A stretch of 64,000 nucleotides of DNA, taken from positions 7,564,001 through 7,628,000 of the forward strand of contig NC_043010.1 of NCBI RefSeq assembly GCF_006345805.1. The letters run 5' to 3'. The DNA is from Octopus sinensis (Eukaryota). A program made the position numbers and the translations under genes. Shown piece after piece: positions 1,555 through 42,039 of this stretch. The notes beneath the pieces are model-generated. The model saw nothing but the letters and a program-made list of their open reading frames with translations, made no database searches and was not told the DNA's origin. Within the stretch, counting starts at the first letter, position 1. The number at the start of each line of letters is the position of its first letter.

Positions 1555-3651
1555 TTTTCCTTGCAATGTTAGCAATATTTGAACCACAGCATATGTTGCA
1601 GACAGGTAAATAATGTCCTTCTAAATGTTAACTGTAGTAAGGCAGTATTGGACTGATGATGTACAATAAGGGAGCAGGGAACTAAGTTTAACCTTTCTTG
1701 TTAAAACTATATTGCAACACAAAGAACTAAACTAAGGCCTGCTTATTGTTCTGAGTATTTAAGTTGGAAGTGTACTTAACAAATTAGTGTACTTAAGAAA
1801 TTATTTAATATTCTTGTAGTCCATGTAAAGTTTATGGTTCTTTTAGGATACACAGAAGGAGATGCTGAAATGTTCCTGGCTCTGGATAAAAGAAAATACA
1901 GGAAGATCACTTAATTATGATTTTATTGAACATATTCCCCTCTCAGATTCAAACGCTTGTTGCAGTGGCCCTTCAGTTTTTCAAAATCCTGTAAAAGAAC
2001 TCAAAGGATCAGGCCCTCAACCAGGCTTTTCACATTACCCTTAAAGCTGGAAACCTTTCAGCACCCACTCATATTTTATTCAACTAATCTTTAACTCAAA
2101 AATTAATCTTTTTGTTTTCAATAAACGAATCATATCTTTTGTTTGCATTTAAATTATTTTTGTAAGTTCTTGATATTTTAGCATTTTTTGTTTGTTCAAT
2201 TTTCAATAATGATTAAGACACCTATATAAATAACTTTGACACAGCTTTTGTTTGTGTACAGTATCAAAGTATATTTCTTAAAATTCTTGTGTTCTTTTAT
2301 CAAAGAAATGCCCTGTCTAAGATACTGAAATACGTTTTACTTCACAGCACATAAGCTTATTTTATTTTATAAATTCTATTAATACAAATATCTTTCTTGT
2401 TGTTACCTATGATCCAACATAGAAAGACATTGCAAATGCTGTATCAAGTAACATTAGTCCTTTCTATGTCACAAGTCACAAAAGCTTTCAATCGCATTTA
2501 CTGCCAAATACTAATGAATCTATATATTACCTGAGAGATTTCCACACGTGAAAGTAACTTTCTTAACACTATAACCCAGTTTATCAATTCCAATACTCTA
2601 AGTCATGAATATTATAAGAATTTAAAGAACTCAAGAAAAATAAATTCATAATTCAATGAGAAGGTAGCTTCATCTGATATAAAAATATTTGTCTAAAAAC
2701 ACTTTGAACAAAAGGTAAAAATTATTGATTTTTTTTTCTCTTTTTTTTTTATGTAGACACAAGGCCTTGAATTGTTAAAATAAGAAAAATACGATTGTAT
2801 GACATAGATGCCTTTCTCAAGGGCATTAGAGATGTTTTAACATAACATAAGATTTAACACAGGATCAATAAACATCTGCTGGTTCTCAATTTTGATGTAT
2901 CTATAAAACTTCGCCATGAAATATTTTCGGTAGAAAAACAAAATAACACACACATATACACACACACTATATATATGTGTGTGTGTGTGTGTATGTGTGT
3001 GTGTAATTCTCAGTCTTCAAATGTATGGATGAATATATCATCGCCGTCATTGTCATTGCAACTAACCTTTAATACTTTTATCCAATTGCGAGCAAGGAGA
3101 GCTTCGTAGACTAGATAGCAAGTTCCTGGCAAAAATAATTCATATCTTATTTTTCAATTCTTCGATTTAACCATTTTCACTTCATTTACATCACTAATAC
3201 TCTATAGAAAGGCATGAAGACAATTTCATTTCACTTCCCTTATAAATATGAAGAATTGTAACAATGTGAGAAATCAATATTCACTCGCCTGAAGCCACAG
3301 CACAACTCTTCCATCTATTTCCAGGTAATATATTCTATGTATTAGAAAAGCTATAGCAATGAATGTATTTATATTTTCTACTCTAAGTCTAATTTTCCTT
3401 ATAGAAATGATAAAATTATGCTGTGGCTCAAACTTTGTATACAATAAAAGATCCCAAACTTGTATTAAATCAGAGTTGATTCTATAAAAGTATATTGCTT
3501 AACCCCTTTTGTGATTGTATTTTTAATGACAGACACCAATACACATGTAGGCTTAGCTGCATGGTTATGATGTTTGCTTCAGAACCATGGGGCTTTGGGA
3601 TTGCTCCTACTTCATGGCATCTTGGGCGAGTACCTTATATTATAACTCTGA

Positions 3652-4806
3652 AGGCGGTGAGCTGGCAGAATCGTTAGCACGCCAGGTGAAATGCTGAGCG
3701 GTATTTTGTCTGCTGCTACGTTCTGAGTTCAAATTCCGCCGAGGTTGACTTTGCCTTTCATCTTTTCGGGGTCGATAAATTAAGTACCAGTTTCGCACTG
3801 GGGTCGATGTAATTGACTTAATCCCTTTGTCTGTCCTTGTTTGTCCCCTCTATGTTTAGCCCCTTGTGGGTAGTAAAGAAATAGGTATTTCGTCTGCTGT
3901 TACCTTCTGAGTTCAAATTCCACCGAGGTCGACTTTGCCTTTCATCCTTTCGGGGTCAATAAATTAAGTACCAGTTTCGCACTGGGGTCGATGTAATCGA
4001 CTTAATCCCTATGTCTGTCCTTGTTTGTCCCCTATATGTTTAGCCCCTTGTGGGTAGTAAATAAATAGGTATTTCGTCTGCTGCTACATTCTGAGTTCAA
4101 ATTCCGCCGAGGTCGACTTTGCCTTTCATCCTTTCGGGGTCGATAAATTAAGTACCAGTTTCGCACTGGGGTCGATGTAATCGACTTAATCCCTTTGTCT
4201 GTCCTTGTTTGTCCCCTCTATGTTTAGCCCCTTGTGGGTAGTAAATAAATAGGTATTTCATCTGCCGCTACATTCTGAGTTCAAATTCCGCCGAGGTCGA
4301 CTTTGCCTTTCATCCTTTCGGGGTCGATAAATTAAGTACCAGTTTCGCACTGGGGGTGTCGATGTAATCGACTTAATCCCTTTGTCTGTCCTTGTTTGTC
4401 CCCTCTATGTTTAGCCCCTTGTGGGTAGTAAATAAATAGGTATTTCATCTGCCGCTACATTCTGAGTTCAAATTCAGCCGAGGTCGACTTTGCCTTTCAT
4501 CCTTTCGGGGTCGATAAATTAAGTACCAGTTTCGCACTGGGGTCGATGTAATCAACTTAATCCCTTTGTCTGTCCTTGTTTGTCCCCTCTATGTTTAGCC
4601 CCTTGTGGGTAGTAAATAAATAGGTATTTCATCTGCCGCTACATTCTGAGTTCAAATTCAGCCGAGGTCGACTTTGCCTTTCATCCATTCGGGGTTGATA
4701 AATTAAGTACTAGTTTCGCACTGGGGTCGATGTAATCAACTTAATCCCTTTGTCTGTCCTTGTTAGTCCCCTCTATGTTTAGCCCCTTGTGGGTAGTAAA
4801 TAAATA
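3652..4806 (+). mobile_element. tRNA-derived SINE family A: one full copy plus five head-less 184-bp tandem units
   Basis: A-box TGGCAGAATCG, B-box GAGTTCAAATTC, body GCCTTTCATCCTTTCGGGGTCGATAAATTAAGTACCAG (resembles the MetaSINE central domain, from memory). Units restart at GGTATTTC at 3884, 4068, 4252, 4439 and 4623. 16-bp TSD TATATTATAACTCTGA at 3636-3651 and 4807-4822. Nested in a decayed family-B SINE. Confidence 0.93.
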
Positions 4807-8661: not shown

Positions 8662-9119
8662 TGATTGCAAATACTGATAGGGCACAGAAAGTGTGTCAAT
8701 GGCATATTCAGATTGTTTAAAAAATCGATAATAGGGCCCTGAAAGGGATCCTTATATATATCTTATATATTTCATTCCAAAAACTAAGGGAAATAACCCA
8801 TTCACCACTGAAAGGGATCCTTATATATAGCCAAGGGAAATAACCCATTCATTTTCCTAAATTATTTGCTAAAATTGAAATTGAGTAAACTTTGTTTAAA
8901 CTTACATCAGCCCTTAATCGGCAATAATGCTACAGTCTTTATCACCCCAGCTTTTTAACGTTTTTCTTGCTTTTTTGTATATCATGGATAACATTTCCCA
9001 ATGTGTCCTTCCGTACTTTCATCTTTTTAAACATTATTGTGTGATTTGAAAACTTGCCTGCTATTTCCCTCCATTCAAATGACTACAAAAATGTTCTCTC
9101 AGTTAAGTAGGCATGGCTG

Positions 9120-23594: not shown

Positions 23595-24602
23595 ACGTTT
23601 GTGTTTGTACACTCTGTTTATGGAAAAGAATGCTTGAATGAAAGAACTTGCAGAAGAGGGTTTGCAAAATTCAGAAGTAGAGATTTCAGTGCTGAAGATG
23701 AAGATCAAACAGGACATCCAGTTGAGTTTGATGATAAGCTCTTCGAGGCATTACTTGAAGAAAATCCTGCATTGTATAGTTCAAACTATACAACTGGTCA
23801 TCGTCATCTTCAATAACTTGGAAAGGTTCCTAAGCTTGGAAAATGGGTGCCTCATGAATTGTTGGAAAGCAACCACAAATCCCAAGTTGACATCTGCTCT
23901 TCTCTCCATTTGCGTGAACTCATTTCACCCTTTTTGGATAGACTTGTGACTGGTGATGAAAAATGGATCTTCTATCGAAAAGTTAAACGTCGTAAACTGA
24001 GGCTTGGTAAAAGGGGAAAAGCCAAACCACAACCGAGAAGAGAACTTCATGGAAAAAAGGTTCTTCTCTCTATCTGGTGGGATTGCAAAGGAGTAATTCA
24101 CTTTGAATTGTTACCACCTAATGCAACAGCAATCAATGCTCAAGTCTATTGTCAGCAACTAGAGCATTTGAACCAAGCTTTGAAGATAAAAAGACCCACT
24201 TTAGTGAATTGAAAAGGAGTGATGTCTTATCAGGAAAATGCATGACCCCACCCTGCAAAGATCTTATCACAGAAGATCGAAGAGCTTGGTTGGGAAAAAA
24301 TTCCTCATCCATCTAATTCTCCCAACCTTGTTCCTTCAGAATACCATTTGTTTTGTAGTTTACAGAATCATTTGGGGGACATAACTTTCACAAGCCAGGA
24401 GGTCGAAACTGACATTTCAGAGTTCTTCACTTTGAAACCGAAAGAGTTTTACATTGATGGGATTAAAATGCTTGTAAATGGATGGAAGGATGTCATAGAT
24501 AATCAGGGAAAGTACATTGATGATTAAATTTCAATTAAATATAAAATTTGATCACTTGCTTTCTTTACTCAAAATTCGGACAGAACTTATGGGATGACCT
24601 GA
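23595..24602 (+). mobile_element. 5'-truncated mariner (DD34D) transposase pseudogene with right TIR
   Basis: Motifs VYGKECLNERTCRR.FAKFRS, WVPHEL, LVTGDEKWIFY, KKVLLSIWWDCKGVIHFELL, QENA*PH, SPNLVPSEYHLF, with stops and frameshifts. Right TIR ...CGGACAGAACTTATGGGATGACCTGA followed by TA. Confidence 0.93.
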
Positions 24603-27589: not shown

Positions 27590-28175
27590 TTCTTTTCTAC
27601 TATAAGCACAATGCCTGCAAATTTTGGAGGAGGAGGCTAGTCGATTACATGGAGCTTAGTACTTGACAGATACTCTACTTTATTAACCCTGAAAAAGATG
27701 AAAGACAAAGTTGACCACAGTGGAATTTGAACTCAGAGTGTAGCGGCTGACGAAATACCTATTTCTTTACTACCCACAAGGGGCTAAACACAGAGAGGAC
27801 AAACAAGGACAGACAAACAGATTAAGTCAATTATATCGACCCCAGTGCGTAACTGGTACTTATTTAATCGACCCCGAAAGGATGAAAGGCAAAGTCGACC
27901 TCGGCGGAATTTGAACTCAGAACGTAGCAGCAAACAAAATACCTATTTCTTTACTACCCACAAGGGGCTAAACACAGAGAGAACAAACAAGGACAGACAA
28001 ACAGATTAAGTCGATTATATTGACCCCAGTGCGTAACTGGTACTTATTTAATCGACCCTGAAACGATGAAAGGCAAAGTCGACCTTGGCGGAATTTGAAC
28101 TCAGAACGTAACGGCAGACAAAATACTGCTAAGCACTTCGCCTGGCGTGCTAACGATTCTGCCAGTTTGCCACTT
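27590..28175 (-). mobile_element. SINE family A array: head-bearing unit, one 184-bp unit, and an older different-tail unit
   Basis: Junctions GAAATA|GGTATTT on the minus strand at 27943/27944 and 27759/27760. Confidence 0.88.
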
Positions 28176-28239
28176 TCAATGATAATAATAATAATGACGA
28201 TGATGATTATGATGATGATGACGATGATGATGATAACGA

Positions 28240-28454
28240 TGGTTTCAAATTTTTTCACAATGCCAGCAATTTCAGGGAATGCATCAATCAATGACATTGA
28301 TCCCAGTGCTCGACTAGTACTTAGTTTATTGGCCCTGAATTGATGAAAGATAAAGTCAACCGCAGTGGAATTTGAACTCAGAATGCAATAACAGACAAAA
28401 ATGCCACTAAACATTTTGCCCAGTGTGCTAAGGATTCTGCCAACTCCCTGCCTT

Positions 28455-28501
<47 letters not shown>

Positions 28502-28716
28502 CCTTTCTATTAAAGGCACAAGTCCTGAAATTTTGGGGGAGGGGACTAGTCGATTACATTGGCCCCAGTGTTTCACTGGTACTTAATTTATTGATTCCCA
28601 AAAGGATGAAAGGCAAAGTCGACCTCAGTGGTATTTGAACTCAGAACAGAGTGGCAGATGAAATACTGCCGAGCATTTCGTCCAGTATGCTAACAATTAT
28701 GCCAGCTCGCCGCCTT
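28240..28716 (-). mobile_element. Two family-A-related SINEs with alternative tails, separated by (AAT)n
   Basis: Same head and central domain as family A. Tails ...GGCATTGTGAAAAAATTTGAAACC and ...CTTGTGCCTTTAATAGAAAGGATTATT. Confidence 0.82.
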
Positions 28717-32117: not shown

Positions 32118-32257
32118 ATATAATAATATAATAATAAATAATAATTTGGCGCGCTGTTAGTTGGGGCATTTGAATTATAACGTCGGATGTAATCATTGAA
32201 CCACACGCGTATTTATCGTTATGGTAAAATCTGGCGTGCGATTGAGTGGATTTCATC

Positions 32258-32353
32258 CAGATAGTTTTGGCTGAGGAGCTACAAGTGGATTTTTTTGTAA
32301 GTAATATTACATTTAATTCATTAATAGCGAAACCATTGTCCCAAAATAATCTG
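32258..32353 (+). ncRNA. Type-I hammerhead ribozyme motif, copy 1
   Basis: CAGATag TTTTGG-CTGAGGA-GCTA...TAGC-GAAAC-catt-GTC-CCAAAA ta ATCTG. Predicted cleavage after C32340. Confidence 0.75.
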
Positions 32354-32787
32354 TATTTTGTTATTTTTTATTTGCCCTGTCCGTGTGAGCTAACAATCGT
32401 ACTGACTTTCATGGGAAACATGTATCTTTGTGGTTGAAACCTTTTGGATTAACTGGTGCTAGAGTGAGCCTATAGTGACCACTCTCTTATATTTTTTTGT
32501 AAAAATATTATAATATTATAAAATATTATAATAATCCAGGTTTCTCGGAGCACTAGGCCACTTGGTGTAGAATAGATATACTATTAAATTAGTATCTAAT
32601 TCTCTCACCCTTATTAATTAATTATAATTATGCTGCATTTATTTCTAAATGCTGTATTTGTTTTCCGTGAAAATTTGGCGCGCTGTTAGTTGGGGCATTT
32701 GAATTATAACGTCGGATGTAATCAATTGAACCACACGCGTATTTATCGTTATGGTAAAATCTGGCGTGCGATTGAGTGGATTTCATC

Positions 32788-32883
32788 CAGATAGTTTTGG
32801 CTGAGGAGCTACAAGTGGATTTTTTTGTAAGTAATATTACATTTAATTCATTAATAGCGAAACAATTGTCCCAAAATAATCTG
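32788..32883 (+). ncRNA. Type-I hammerhead ribozyme motif, copy 2
   Basis: Same as copy 1, but with a palindromic stem III/loop ACAATTGT. Predicted cleavage after C32870. Confidence 0.8.
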
Positions 32884-33151
32884 TATTTTGTTATTTTTTA
32901 TTTGCCCTGTCCGTGTGAGCTAACAATCGTACTGACTTTCATGGGAAACATGTATCTTTGTGGTTGAAACCTTTTGGATTAACTGGTGCTAGAGTGAGCC
33001 ATATAGTGACCACTCTCTTATATTTATTTTGTAAAAATATTATAATATATTATAAAATATTATAATAATCCAGGTTTCTCGGAGCACTAGGCCACTTGGT
33101 GTAGAATAGATATACTATTAAATTAGTATCTAATTCTCTCACCCTTATTAA

Positions 33152-39845: not shown

Positions 39846-41312
39846 GTACCTCTAATATTTCTGCTCTAGATTGAAACATTTTATTGAACTGTAAATGATA
39901 AAAGGTAAAGTTAATCTAGGCAGCATTTGAACTCAGTGTGCAGAGATTTGGAACGAATATGGTGAGACGTTCTACCTAACAACTCTGCCACTTTGGAGCC
40001 TTAACGCAGAGTGAATTTATAATGAGAAGAACCTACATTCTAAATGCTAGGAGTCCAATACTTTAAAAATCCTTCGTTGAGTAGGTAATAAACAAGGGAA
40101 CAAATAAATATCTAAATAAATAAATAAATGAATAGGGGAAGCCTTTCAGTAATAAATATTTCTAACTACTACTTAAGACTTCAAAAACTTTTAAATAAAT
40201 AACATTTAATCCATCATTCTGTAACACATACACATAGACACACACATTCACACACGTAAGCTCACTAATATACATACATAGAGACATACACGCATATTTA
40301 CTTATACATATAAGCACGCTAATATACATACGTACACACATACACACTGATTCAGATAGGTACATACACACACATATGTGAACATGTACAAGCACATTCA
40401 TTGCTTTGCACACAAAGAATGATACATAATTTCTATTTTTTTTTTAATTTTGGGAAATTAGATTTAAGAGGAAAATGTAGTAATAATTTGATATATCAAA
40501 TTTAACTCATCTCTCTCTCTCTCTCTTTACCTCTTTCTTTCTTTCTCTCTTTCTCTCTGTCTCCCTCACTCTCTTTTTCCTCTCTAACACACATGCATAT
40601 ACACACTAATACACACACATAGACATTATATACACTTGAAAGTTATTAGAAATATTTATGATTGAAATATTGCATGAAATGTTGACTGAAATGCCATATA
40701 TGTATATTAAATTTAAAACATAAAAAGTATAAAACACAATATATAATAATAAAAATAAAAACAAATTAGATGTAGTGTTATGTTGAAAACACGTTACACA
40801 TGACTAACAAAATTCTTGTTTCAATAGAAAAACCCACTTATGGAGTATCTGTGGATTATATCAGATGAGATACCTTGTGGTTGTTATTGATAATGTTGTT
40901 GCTGGTGATGGTGGTGATGGTGTTGTTATTGTTGTTAGTGGAGGAGGGTGAGGTTTCTTGATGTTGCCATTGCTGTTTAACCCAAGTCAGCCTTGACTGA
41001 ATAGACACATGATTAAAGGCCTTCACATCGTGGCCATCCAACTCCTTTGTTCTTCTTCTAGGTTTGTTGTACTCCAACCCAATGTGTCCCTTTATAAGAT
41101 GGTACAGTATGGTTCTGAAGGAAATTTGATTGTTATTTCTAATAGGGTGAACATTCCTGTAGAGCAGGGGGTTCTGAACCCTTCTTTATTTATAGACCCC
41201 TTTGACTGCTATTTTCTTCTGGTGGACCCCCATAGCCATTCGATGTTTAAAAACTAACAAAAAATAGAAAAAAATAGACAGGTATCTTTAACCAGCTATC
41301 AATCCATGCTAC

Positions 41313-41354
41313 TCCAGACTGATGATGAGTAAAACTCAGAAACATGTCTCTGGA
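41313..41354 (+). ncRNA. Canonical minimal type-I hammerhead ribozyme motif
   Basis: TCCAGA-CTGATGA-TGAGT aaa ACTCA-GAAAC-at-GTC-TCTGGA. The core is perfect, stem I is 6 bp, stem II is 5 bp, stem III is the palindrome ACATGT, and the cleavage site is GUC. Distal stem-I extension CCAGCTA (41292) / TAGCTGG (41363). Confidence 0.88.
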
Positions 41355-41513
41355 TGCAGGCTTAGCTGGATGGGGGTGCTTGTCTCCCCTTTGTAAACAT
41401 AAGGACACAGGAAATGTGTCAAGGCCGACAGGAAGCGTTGATGCTTCCTAGGATTAAATAGCGATTCCCTTTATGGGACTGTCACGTTAAGTTGACGGTA
41501 TACAACTGTATAA

Positions 41514-41743
41514 GGCAGCGAGCTGGCAGAAACGTTAGCACGCCGGGCGAAATGCTTAGCGGTATTTCGTCTGCGTTACATTGTGAGTTCAAATTCCGCC
41601 GAGGTCGACTTTGCCTTTCATCCTTTCGGGGTCGATAAATTAAGTACCAGTTACGCACTGGGGTCGATGTAATCGACTTAATACCTATGTCTGTCCTTGC
41701 TTGTCCCCTCTGTGTTTAGCCCCTTGTGGGTAATAAAGAAATT
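41514..41743 (+). mobile_element. SINE family A monomer with a 17-bp TSD
   Basis: TSD GGTATACAACTGT(A/T)TAA at 41497-41513 and 41744-41760. Confidence 0.92.
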
Positions 41744-42039
41744 GGTATACAACTGTTTAAAAACTAGTTTTATAGAAACTTCTTTCAAAATTCCTATTTT
41801 GTTTTTCACTCATTAACTTATGTAAGTTGAACTGTGTGAAAGAAGCCTAGCTGATTCTTGCATTACATACCAATACATACATCTAAAGTAAATTTTACTC
41901 AGGAGCCCTTAAAATATTATTGTCGATCCCCAATTTATTATTGTTTTGCATGGAACCCTAAAAATTTTAAACGGACCCTCACGAGTCATATGGACCCCAG
42001 TTGAGAACCACTGCCATAGAGCTTCTCCCATTGGTTTTA

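Follow-up and report, generated by a model that had tools for sequence, protein, structure and literature searches.

What kind of mobile element is the short, hammerhead-bearing insertion that interrupts a MITE of Octopus sinensis, and how did it get there? The locus lies in a window of 64,000 nt (NC_043010.1, positions 7,564,001 to 7,628,000 of the forward strand), which is the whole stretch of DNA that was analysed; positions given without a locus name are counted from its first letter. The favoured answer, to which a probability of about 0.8 is assigned, is that the insertion would be a 5'-truncated copy of a non-coding 356-nt hammerhead unit, reverse-transcribed in trans by a Penelope-like (PLE) RT/GIY-YIG protein. 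Taken alone, the window copy is truncated and belongs to a known kind of element, found here in a host group that is new for it. What is new lies at the family level: a PLE signature without a cognate PLE, and the repeated capture of ORF1 cassettes.

A discrete insertion in a MITE

The host MITE covers 41165-42013, its left part being 41165..41256 (+) and its right part 41767..42013 (+), as judged from other MITE copies. It is presumably of hAT type, a label taken from its termini and an 8-bp flanking repeat that matches at 6 of 8 positions. A first-look search gave 2464 candidates in the genome, and 14 other copies were fetched; the insertion site is single and continuous in all 14, with the motif present once, in a variant form. 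In the window, the site is present as a 13-bp direct repeat, TGTTTAAAAACTA, at 41244-41256 and 41754-41766 (both +), the first bases of the right copy overlapping the unit 3' end and the duplication of a nested SINE. In contigs of three DNA runs, 510 nt are skipped at joints whose two sides have 13 letters in common; most of these joints come from paralogous MITE copies. Because the other MITE copies are continuous and the joints skip 510 nt, the repeat is a true target-site duplication, and the discrete insertion that the original prediction had placed between its two halves is confirmed. So is the nesting of the SINE (41510..41743, +), which has its own 13-bp duplication (41497-41509 and 41744-41756) and would have landed later, at the 3' junction of the hammerhead insertion.

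The remaining 254-nt piece, 41257-41510, folds at z = -4.5, none of 200 shuffles being as stable. Its main part, 41275..41508 (+), is a 5'-truncated copy of the 356-nt unit running from u283 to ~u169 with an 8-nt deletion, in a numbering where u1 is the base after the predicted cleavage site. It represents the 3' 234 nt of the unit, ~110 nt of which are missing, and departs from the commonest letters of the family by 10 substitutions and small gaps. A type I hammerhead motif with a palindromic stem III, of the dimer type, lies at 41313..41354 (+), with predicted cleavage after C41348; it is flanked by an extended stem I (41292..41370, +), backed by a fold z of -3.4 and by covariation. Conserved 3' hairpins follow at 41400..41508 (+), their end being the first of two preferred insertion ends, and are likely to form the region of RT binding and initiation. 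Upstream, 41257..41270 (-) is a stretch of 14 nt that corresponds, in inverted orientation, to the end of the unit's own tail (~u222-236). It is the exact reverse complement of the tail in family copies and occurs once in the window; the match is short and A-rich, hence moderate evidence, and similar pieces are found in L002 and L011. It may represent a 5' inversion of the PLE type. As it stands, the window copy is dead and truncated, and nothing points to a function for the host.

A motif scan of the window returned three other hammerhead candidates beside the one at 41313-41354. Rfam gave nothing at gathering score anywhere in the window, and an E-value scan of 7 loci yielded microsatellite-driven miRNA-type matches only, with no hammerhead family. 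A SINE identity of the hammerhead unit was rejected on account of the lack of a tRNA and of an Rfam match, the two 3' ends and the read-through of unit junctions.

A dispersed family of hammerhead units

The unit (42% GC) closes head to tail through ~110 nt obtained from the flanks of copies. A first-look search provided 2858 family candidates in the genome, 40 of which were scored and display 88-91% identity to the window copy. Exact genome matches number 143 for a 21-mer and 86 for a 30-nt motif, scattered across most chromosomes, and 0 for the reversed controls. Units in 22 loci of this and related families are 48-96% alike, and the flanks shared among unit loci are mostly common repeats, an ORF1 cassette excepted. 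The window copy has one ribozyme; head-to-tail copies, among which tandem multimers were predicted, exist as dimers in L010, L023 and L277 and as 2.3 units in L312, the maximum among the sampled insertions, where no long tandem array was seen. The absence of an ORF, as first described, holds in 88 of 89 sampled insertions.

Metazoan non-LTR retrozymes have been given a sequence-level definition (PMC7229834, as far as its available text goes). At that level the unit would be classed among them: it is non-coding and within ~150-450 nt, has a low GC content and no LTR features, and occurs in tandem copies with at least two complete ribozymes.

Ribozyme structure and covariation

The conserved core of a type I hammerhead is present in the unit family. 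Twenty members of this and related families, down to ~50% identity, were aligned, the rows being related and two of them off by one base. For stems I and II, together with three hairpins downstream, 89% of cells are paired, as compared to 27-45% when slid. Of 35 pairs, 18 change on both sides; cells of this kind number 95, as opposed to 36.7 after shuffling (0/500), while further pair types in the 20-row alignment are not above shuffles (264/500). The first covariation control is inflated, since the rows are related and the tested structure was drawn from the same sequences. RNAalifold, unaided, recovers the same hammerhead helices. With its structure, its hammerhead, its retrozyme size, its head-to-tail copies and helices that covary as anticipated across the 20 members, the unit is of the retrozyme type that had been proposed.

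Core columns vary less (1.9%) than other non-polymorphic columns (4.1%), and of 68 segments that span the core, 15 have it damaged. Among the 20 members, 13 have a palindromic stem III, 5 a near-palindromic one and 2 a non-palindromic one, one of these last being mis-parsed; an AT/TA swap affects 24 and 23 of 74 segments at two neighbouring columns. The window ribozyme had been called flawless. The motif is indeed at 41313-41354, and the adjective is overstated, because the stem III palindrome needs a dimer: with 2 bp and a 2-nt palindromic loop, this stem cannot form in a lone ribozyme. Moreover, 2 of the 5 stem II pairs are specific to the window copy, arising from C-to-T changes where the family mostly has a C.A mismatch. 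A palindromic stem III is reported to impede monomer cleavage and to work in dimers (PMC4209133), and the window copy, with its single ribozyme, would probably not cleave alone. In an unconstrained cofold of two window hammerheads the intermolecular stem III is absent, and the bare 6-mer duplex amounts to -4.6 kcal/mol.

The chain of hairpins listed downstream of the ribozyme is present, though not as a fully compatible set, as CTGTCA/TGACGG overlaps AGTTG/CAACT. The proposed GGGGG/TCCCC hairpin is not retained: in the minimum-energy fold GGGGG pairs with the 5' arm instead. To note, core variants with C/U changes at the first two core positions and fully covarying helices exist in related units at L180:4476-4725, L184:4392-4640 and L183:4049-4293.

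Insertion ends of the Penelope type

The ends of the copies were collected in two sets. The first, biased by the query, comprises 69 rows from three similarity searches, two of them redundant, leaving 67. The second is anchored on exact matches to the 21-mer that closely follows the cleavage site, a choice that favours less diverged copies: 90 were fetched among the matches listed (100 of 143), and one duplicate of the same insertion was dropped, leaving 89. The ten listed matches left out were the window's own, four that were near or already sampled, and the last five.

The anchored 3' ends fall at two fixed sites ~55 nt apart, which take 83 of the 89 insertions (55 at u165-178 and 28 at u218-240, with 6 elsewhere); in the first set, 59 3' ends are at the same two sites. 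The 5' ends are ragged, with a smooth decay. An apparent pile-up of 5' ends at the cleavage site was discarded: 3 of 69 rows of the first set lie within 6 nt of it, but only 1 of the 89 anchored insertions starts there. The cleavage site is read through in 88 of these 89, 26 are longer than one unit (the longest reaching 834 nt), and in 39 an inverted piece lies alongside. At least 13 of the 69 rows have exact, non-simple duplications of 9-13 nt. Many unit insertions are flanked by (TA)n, and the target sites are AT-rich.

The permuted start points predicted from a circular template are therefore not observed, and the supposed ~250-bp permuted monomer is instead a 5'-truncated piece of a longer unit whose 3' ends are fixed at two sites. 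The two 3' ends with a tail between them, the 5' truncation, the inverted 5' pieces and the AT-rich targets are all features of PLE mobilisation. In a lizard PLE, two internal RT starts are described to delimit a genomic tail, targets are AT-rich and the main template is an uncleaved RNA (PMC11167929); PLE tails, partial tandems and inverted 5' copies have also been reported (PMC8557442). The end pattern matches these reports closely, and mobilisation by a PLE protein is inferred from this match. The distinction originally drawn between this element and the (TA)n-associated Penelope fragments of the window consequently dissolves, as the family has the PLE tail, the inverted 5' pieces and many (TA)n flanks.

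Circle or uncleaved multimer

The read-through suggests an RNA template that was closed at the ribozyme site, whether as a multimer left uncleaved or as a religated circle. Animal retrozymes provide a precedent for the latter: the units of mussel, 350-390 nt long, are reported to form abundant circles (PMC7229834). A self-cleaved unit ligated into a monomeric circle could template the copies longer than one unit and would account for the crossing of the cleavage site. Folded as a circle, the unit is also stable (z = -6.1 and -8.7; 0/60 shuffles). Among 32 insertions with a repeated stretch, the repeated copies differ at 36 of 165 diagnostic columns, for a background of ~7%, as compared to 38% between loci. 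At subfamily-diagnostic columns the two copies agree in most cases, 11 of 78 differing when L023 is left out. Most of these insertions are consistent with one template, L023, L030 and L051 being exceptions. The two units of L023 differ at 11 of 17 diagnostic columns, while L030 and L051 join AT-type to TA-type ribozymes. At least 3 of the 32 insertions thus join units of different subfamilies, which a single monomeric circle cannot give and which calls for a template switch or a multimer of mixed units. In several insertions with a cassette, moreover, an empty unit stands beside a loaded one, the 3' ends are not permuted, and an uncleaved multimer explains the same read-through. The monomeric circle is accordingly a tentative alternative, rather doubtful as the general template, and the uncleaved multimer is favoured for at least part of the copies. 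Reading through a ribozyme need not imply a circle.

None of the sequencing runs that contain the unit is on record as RNA. A head-to-tail joint occurs in two of four presumed-RNA runs, all of which cover the unit. It was set aside as evidence for circles, because the joint exists in DNA.

Search for a Penelope partner

The features of the insertion ends are all those of PLE terminal repeats, and animal retrozymes have been reported to derive from such repeats (10.64898/2026.07.22.740005, from the part available). The copies might then be no more than pieces of the 3' terminal repeat of an autonomous PLE, either missed or extinct. The genome has many PLE GIY-YIG ORFs, with 19,165 first-look candidates from which only a few families were examined, and at least two young PLE families have intact frames; these two would be Neptune-like, judging from their cysteine linker. 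The unit loci, however, do not reveal such a parent. No PLE ORF runs into the ribozyme in any of the 67 loci of the first set or the 89 of the anchored set, and an RT and GIY-YIG ORF between terminal repeats is absent from the unit loci sampled. Conversely, no 3' sequence shared with the unit was found in the PLE loci examined, which represent few of many families, and the two intact families end in hammerhead-like motifs of their own, unrelated to that of the unit. Sixty PLE stretches, from overlapping sets, hold a unit only in L213, where it is inverted across a TA tract, in L107, where it is partial, and in L226, which was chosen for its unit. As the unit also closes on itself head to tail without an ORF, an origin as fragments of an autonomous PLE is judged quite improbable. 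Since no PLE ORF with the unit as its terminal repeat was found in the loci examined, the element is best read as being of the non-LTR retrozyme type and mobilised in trans.

L213 and L271 were considered as PLE partner loci and rejected, the PLE and the unit being mere neighbours across (TA)n tracts. The young PLE families (L209, L213, L229-L238) have intact frames of 775-781 aa in near-identical copies, and in their 3' region CCAAT- and CRE-like boxes recur ahead of the hammerhead-like motif. Within the window, (TA)n tracts enclose a head-to-tail dimer of 530 bp at 32146-33140, each of whose units has a different hammerhead-like motif with a long loop II and a palindromic stem III; it may be a second retrozyme-like family or a PLE terminal-repeat family.

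ORF1 cassettes in related units

Two unit loci run from u325 into shared sequence, which led to a ~2.1-kb form with 17 matches at 16 loci. This form reads from the unit to u325, through a 1.7-kb cassette with a CCHC ORF and an AATAAA end, and then from u306 onward with the ribozyme, the u306-325 stretch being repeated on both sides of the cassette. The cassette is an L1/Tx1-type ORF1 with a CCHC knuckle, without ORF2 and with a LINE-like 3' end; the Tx1 clade label of these LINEs and cassettes is an assumption of ours. In L188, an endonuclease-RT-zinc-finger ORF2 follows homologous ORFs, which share its 3' end, and in L183 a LINE end and a cassette stand in tandem, with the same 21 nt after each, ahead of a hammerhead.

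The ORF1 family has 11,380 first-look candidates in the genome. Twenty of these loci were picked for long frames or tandem spacing, and not for ribozymes: a same-strand unit lies at most 1.8 kb downstream in 13, an inverted unit upstream in 2 and a more distant unit in 1, with none in 4. Eleven of the units in these loci were in the search profile, having been found at first by motif or BLAST. The cassettes join the unit 0-25 nt ahead of the catalytic core, and the junctions of different families have no sequence in common. By script, 13 of 22 loci have an exact repeat of 10-24 nt; about 9 of these, picked out by eye, are junction duplications of 10-21 nt. With dN/dS values of 0.08-0.38 over the first 250 codons of 9 ORF1s, the cassettes are under purifying selection.

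Selected coding sequence in a form found at 16 loci, with a repeat around the cassette, would also be expected if the ORF1-bearing 2.1-kb form were the master and the 356-nt unit its deletion product between short direct repeats. The identities of ORF1 and unit are nevertheless uncorrelated over the 22 loci (Spearman 0.08, the pairs not being independent): ORF1s 94% alike sit on units 50% alike, and units 89% alike have ORF1s 47% alike. The position of the direct repeat, furthermore, changes from family to family, ORF1s of this lineage also occur in arrays without hammerheads, and the cassette was found in only 1 of the 89 anchored insertions. This derivation is consequently held to be unlikely, and the simplest reading of the sequences would be the repeated insertion of ORF1-only cassettes, amplified later by the PLE route. 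The site may have been used through selection for expression from a promoter of the unit, or through template switching at the RNA level; given the arrays without hammerheads, the preference for hammerhead sites is not exclusive.

The idea that the short form arose by splicing was discarded, the 5' junction of the cassette reading GT in one family only. The arrays without hammerheads (L186, L187, L188 and L189) are tandem ORF1-only cassettes, accompanied by full LINEs in L188, with AATAAA and a short family-specific spacer at each junction.

Proposed mechanism and comparison with known systems

The following route would account for the insertion. Head-to-tail units would be transcribed, and the conserved hairpins 3' of the ribozyme would recruit a PLE protein that nicks AT-rich DNA. 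The cDNA would start internally, at ~u174 or ~u230, the stretch between the two corresponding to the PLE 'tail'. Cleavage by the ribozyme would require a dimer joined by the palindromic stem III. In related units, L1/Tx1-type ORF1-only cassettes would repeatedly have entered a site just 5' of the core, and the loaded units would then have been carried along as ~2.1-kb composites. The wider, three-tier picture, in which a superfamily of retrozymes uses its conserved hairpins to hijack Penelope enzymes and ORF1-only cassettes of an L1/Tx1 lineage repeatedly enter the 5' arm of the ribozyme to yield PLE-mobilised coding composites, is given even chances. If true, ORF1 lands regardless of the ribozyme sequence and is kept under purifying selection.

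Like the metazoan non-LTR retrozymes of the accessible descriptions (PMC7229834; 10.64898/2026.07.22.740005), the octopus unit of ~350 nt has no ORF, a GC content below 45%, a canonical type I hammerhead, head-to-tail copies and no LTR, PBS or PPT, and PLEs are found in the genome. Unlike those described there, it is dispersed and mostly truncated, with no array above 2.3 units seen; its hairpin set is common to families ~50% alike, its relatives have ORF1 cargo, and no homologous PLE terminal repeat was found for it. With PLE terminal repeats it shares the two RT starts with a tail, the inverted 5' copies and the partial tandems (PMC11167929, PMC8557442), as well as the AT-rich/(TA)n targets, the dimer-type hammerhead and, probably, the uncleaved template (PMC11167929, PMC4209133). 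It differs from the PLEs of these reports by having neither RT nor GIY-YIG ORF and a tail of ~55 nt instead of 30-40, and from the minimal PLE hammerhead by its canonical helix sizes, with a 6-bp stem I and a short stem II.

The cassettes resemble HAL1, the ORF1-only L1 derivatives, in their sole ORF1 and LINE-like 3' end with AATAAA (PMC5753468). Tandem copies around a short duplication have HAL1 and Tx1 precedents (PMC5753468, PMC4494074), and the use of a transposon as a landing site is known from transposon-targeting Tx1 elements (PMC4494074). Unlike these, as far as described, the cassettes land in the 5' arm of a hammerhead without a shared junction sequence, and the composite has PLE-type ends. 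Terminons of bdelloid rotifers also have accessory ORFs in hammerhead-ended PLE-type units; unlike the octopus units, they are reported to be telomeric, to encode their own RT and to be far larger (PMC6431247).

PLE mobilisation of animal retrozymes had been proposed earlier from co-occurrence and terminal-repeat homology. In the present family, the integration signature of PLEs is borne by the ORF-less hammerhead unit itself, whose two putative RT start sites and conserved hairpins offer targets for mutation, making the question testable with a purified PLE protein. The repeated landing of ORF1 beside the core, with no common target sequence, raises the question of site choice or selection in LINEs. 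None of the papers listed in a literature search deals with a cephalopod retrozyme or with ORF1 cassettes in retrozymes; the family may sit in Repbase or Dfam, which were outside that search.

Other repeats of the window

SINEs of the nested type are abundant and form partial tandem arrays; in the window they are found at 41510-41743, 3651-4805 and 27639-28716. Aligned to the 3' UTR of the L188 LINE and to the L189 cassette, their 3' tail scores 58 and 62, as compared to shuffled maxima of 29 and 31, which suggests that the L1/Tx1-type LINE may be the partner of the SINE. A weak 39-nt match to the hairpin region of the unit (20.6 bits) lies at 8665-8703, and 23817-24212 is a fragment of a transposase frame, presumably of the mariner type judging from its motifs.
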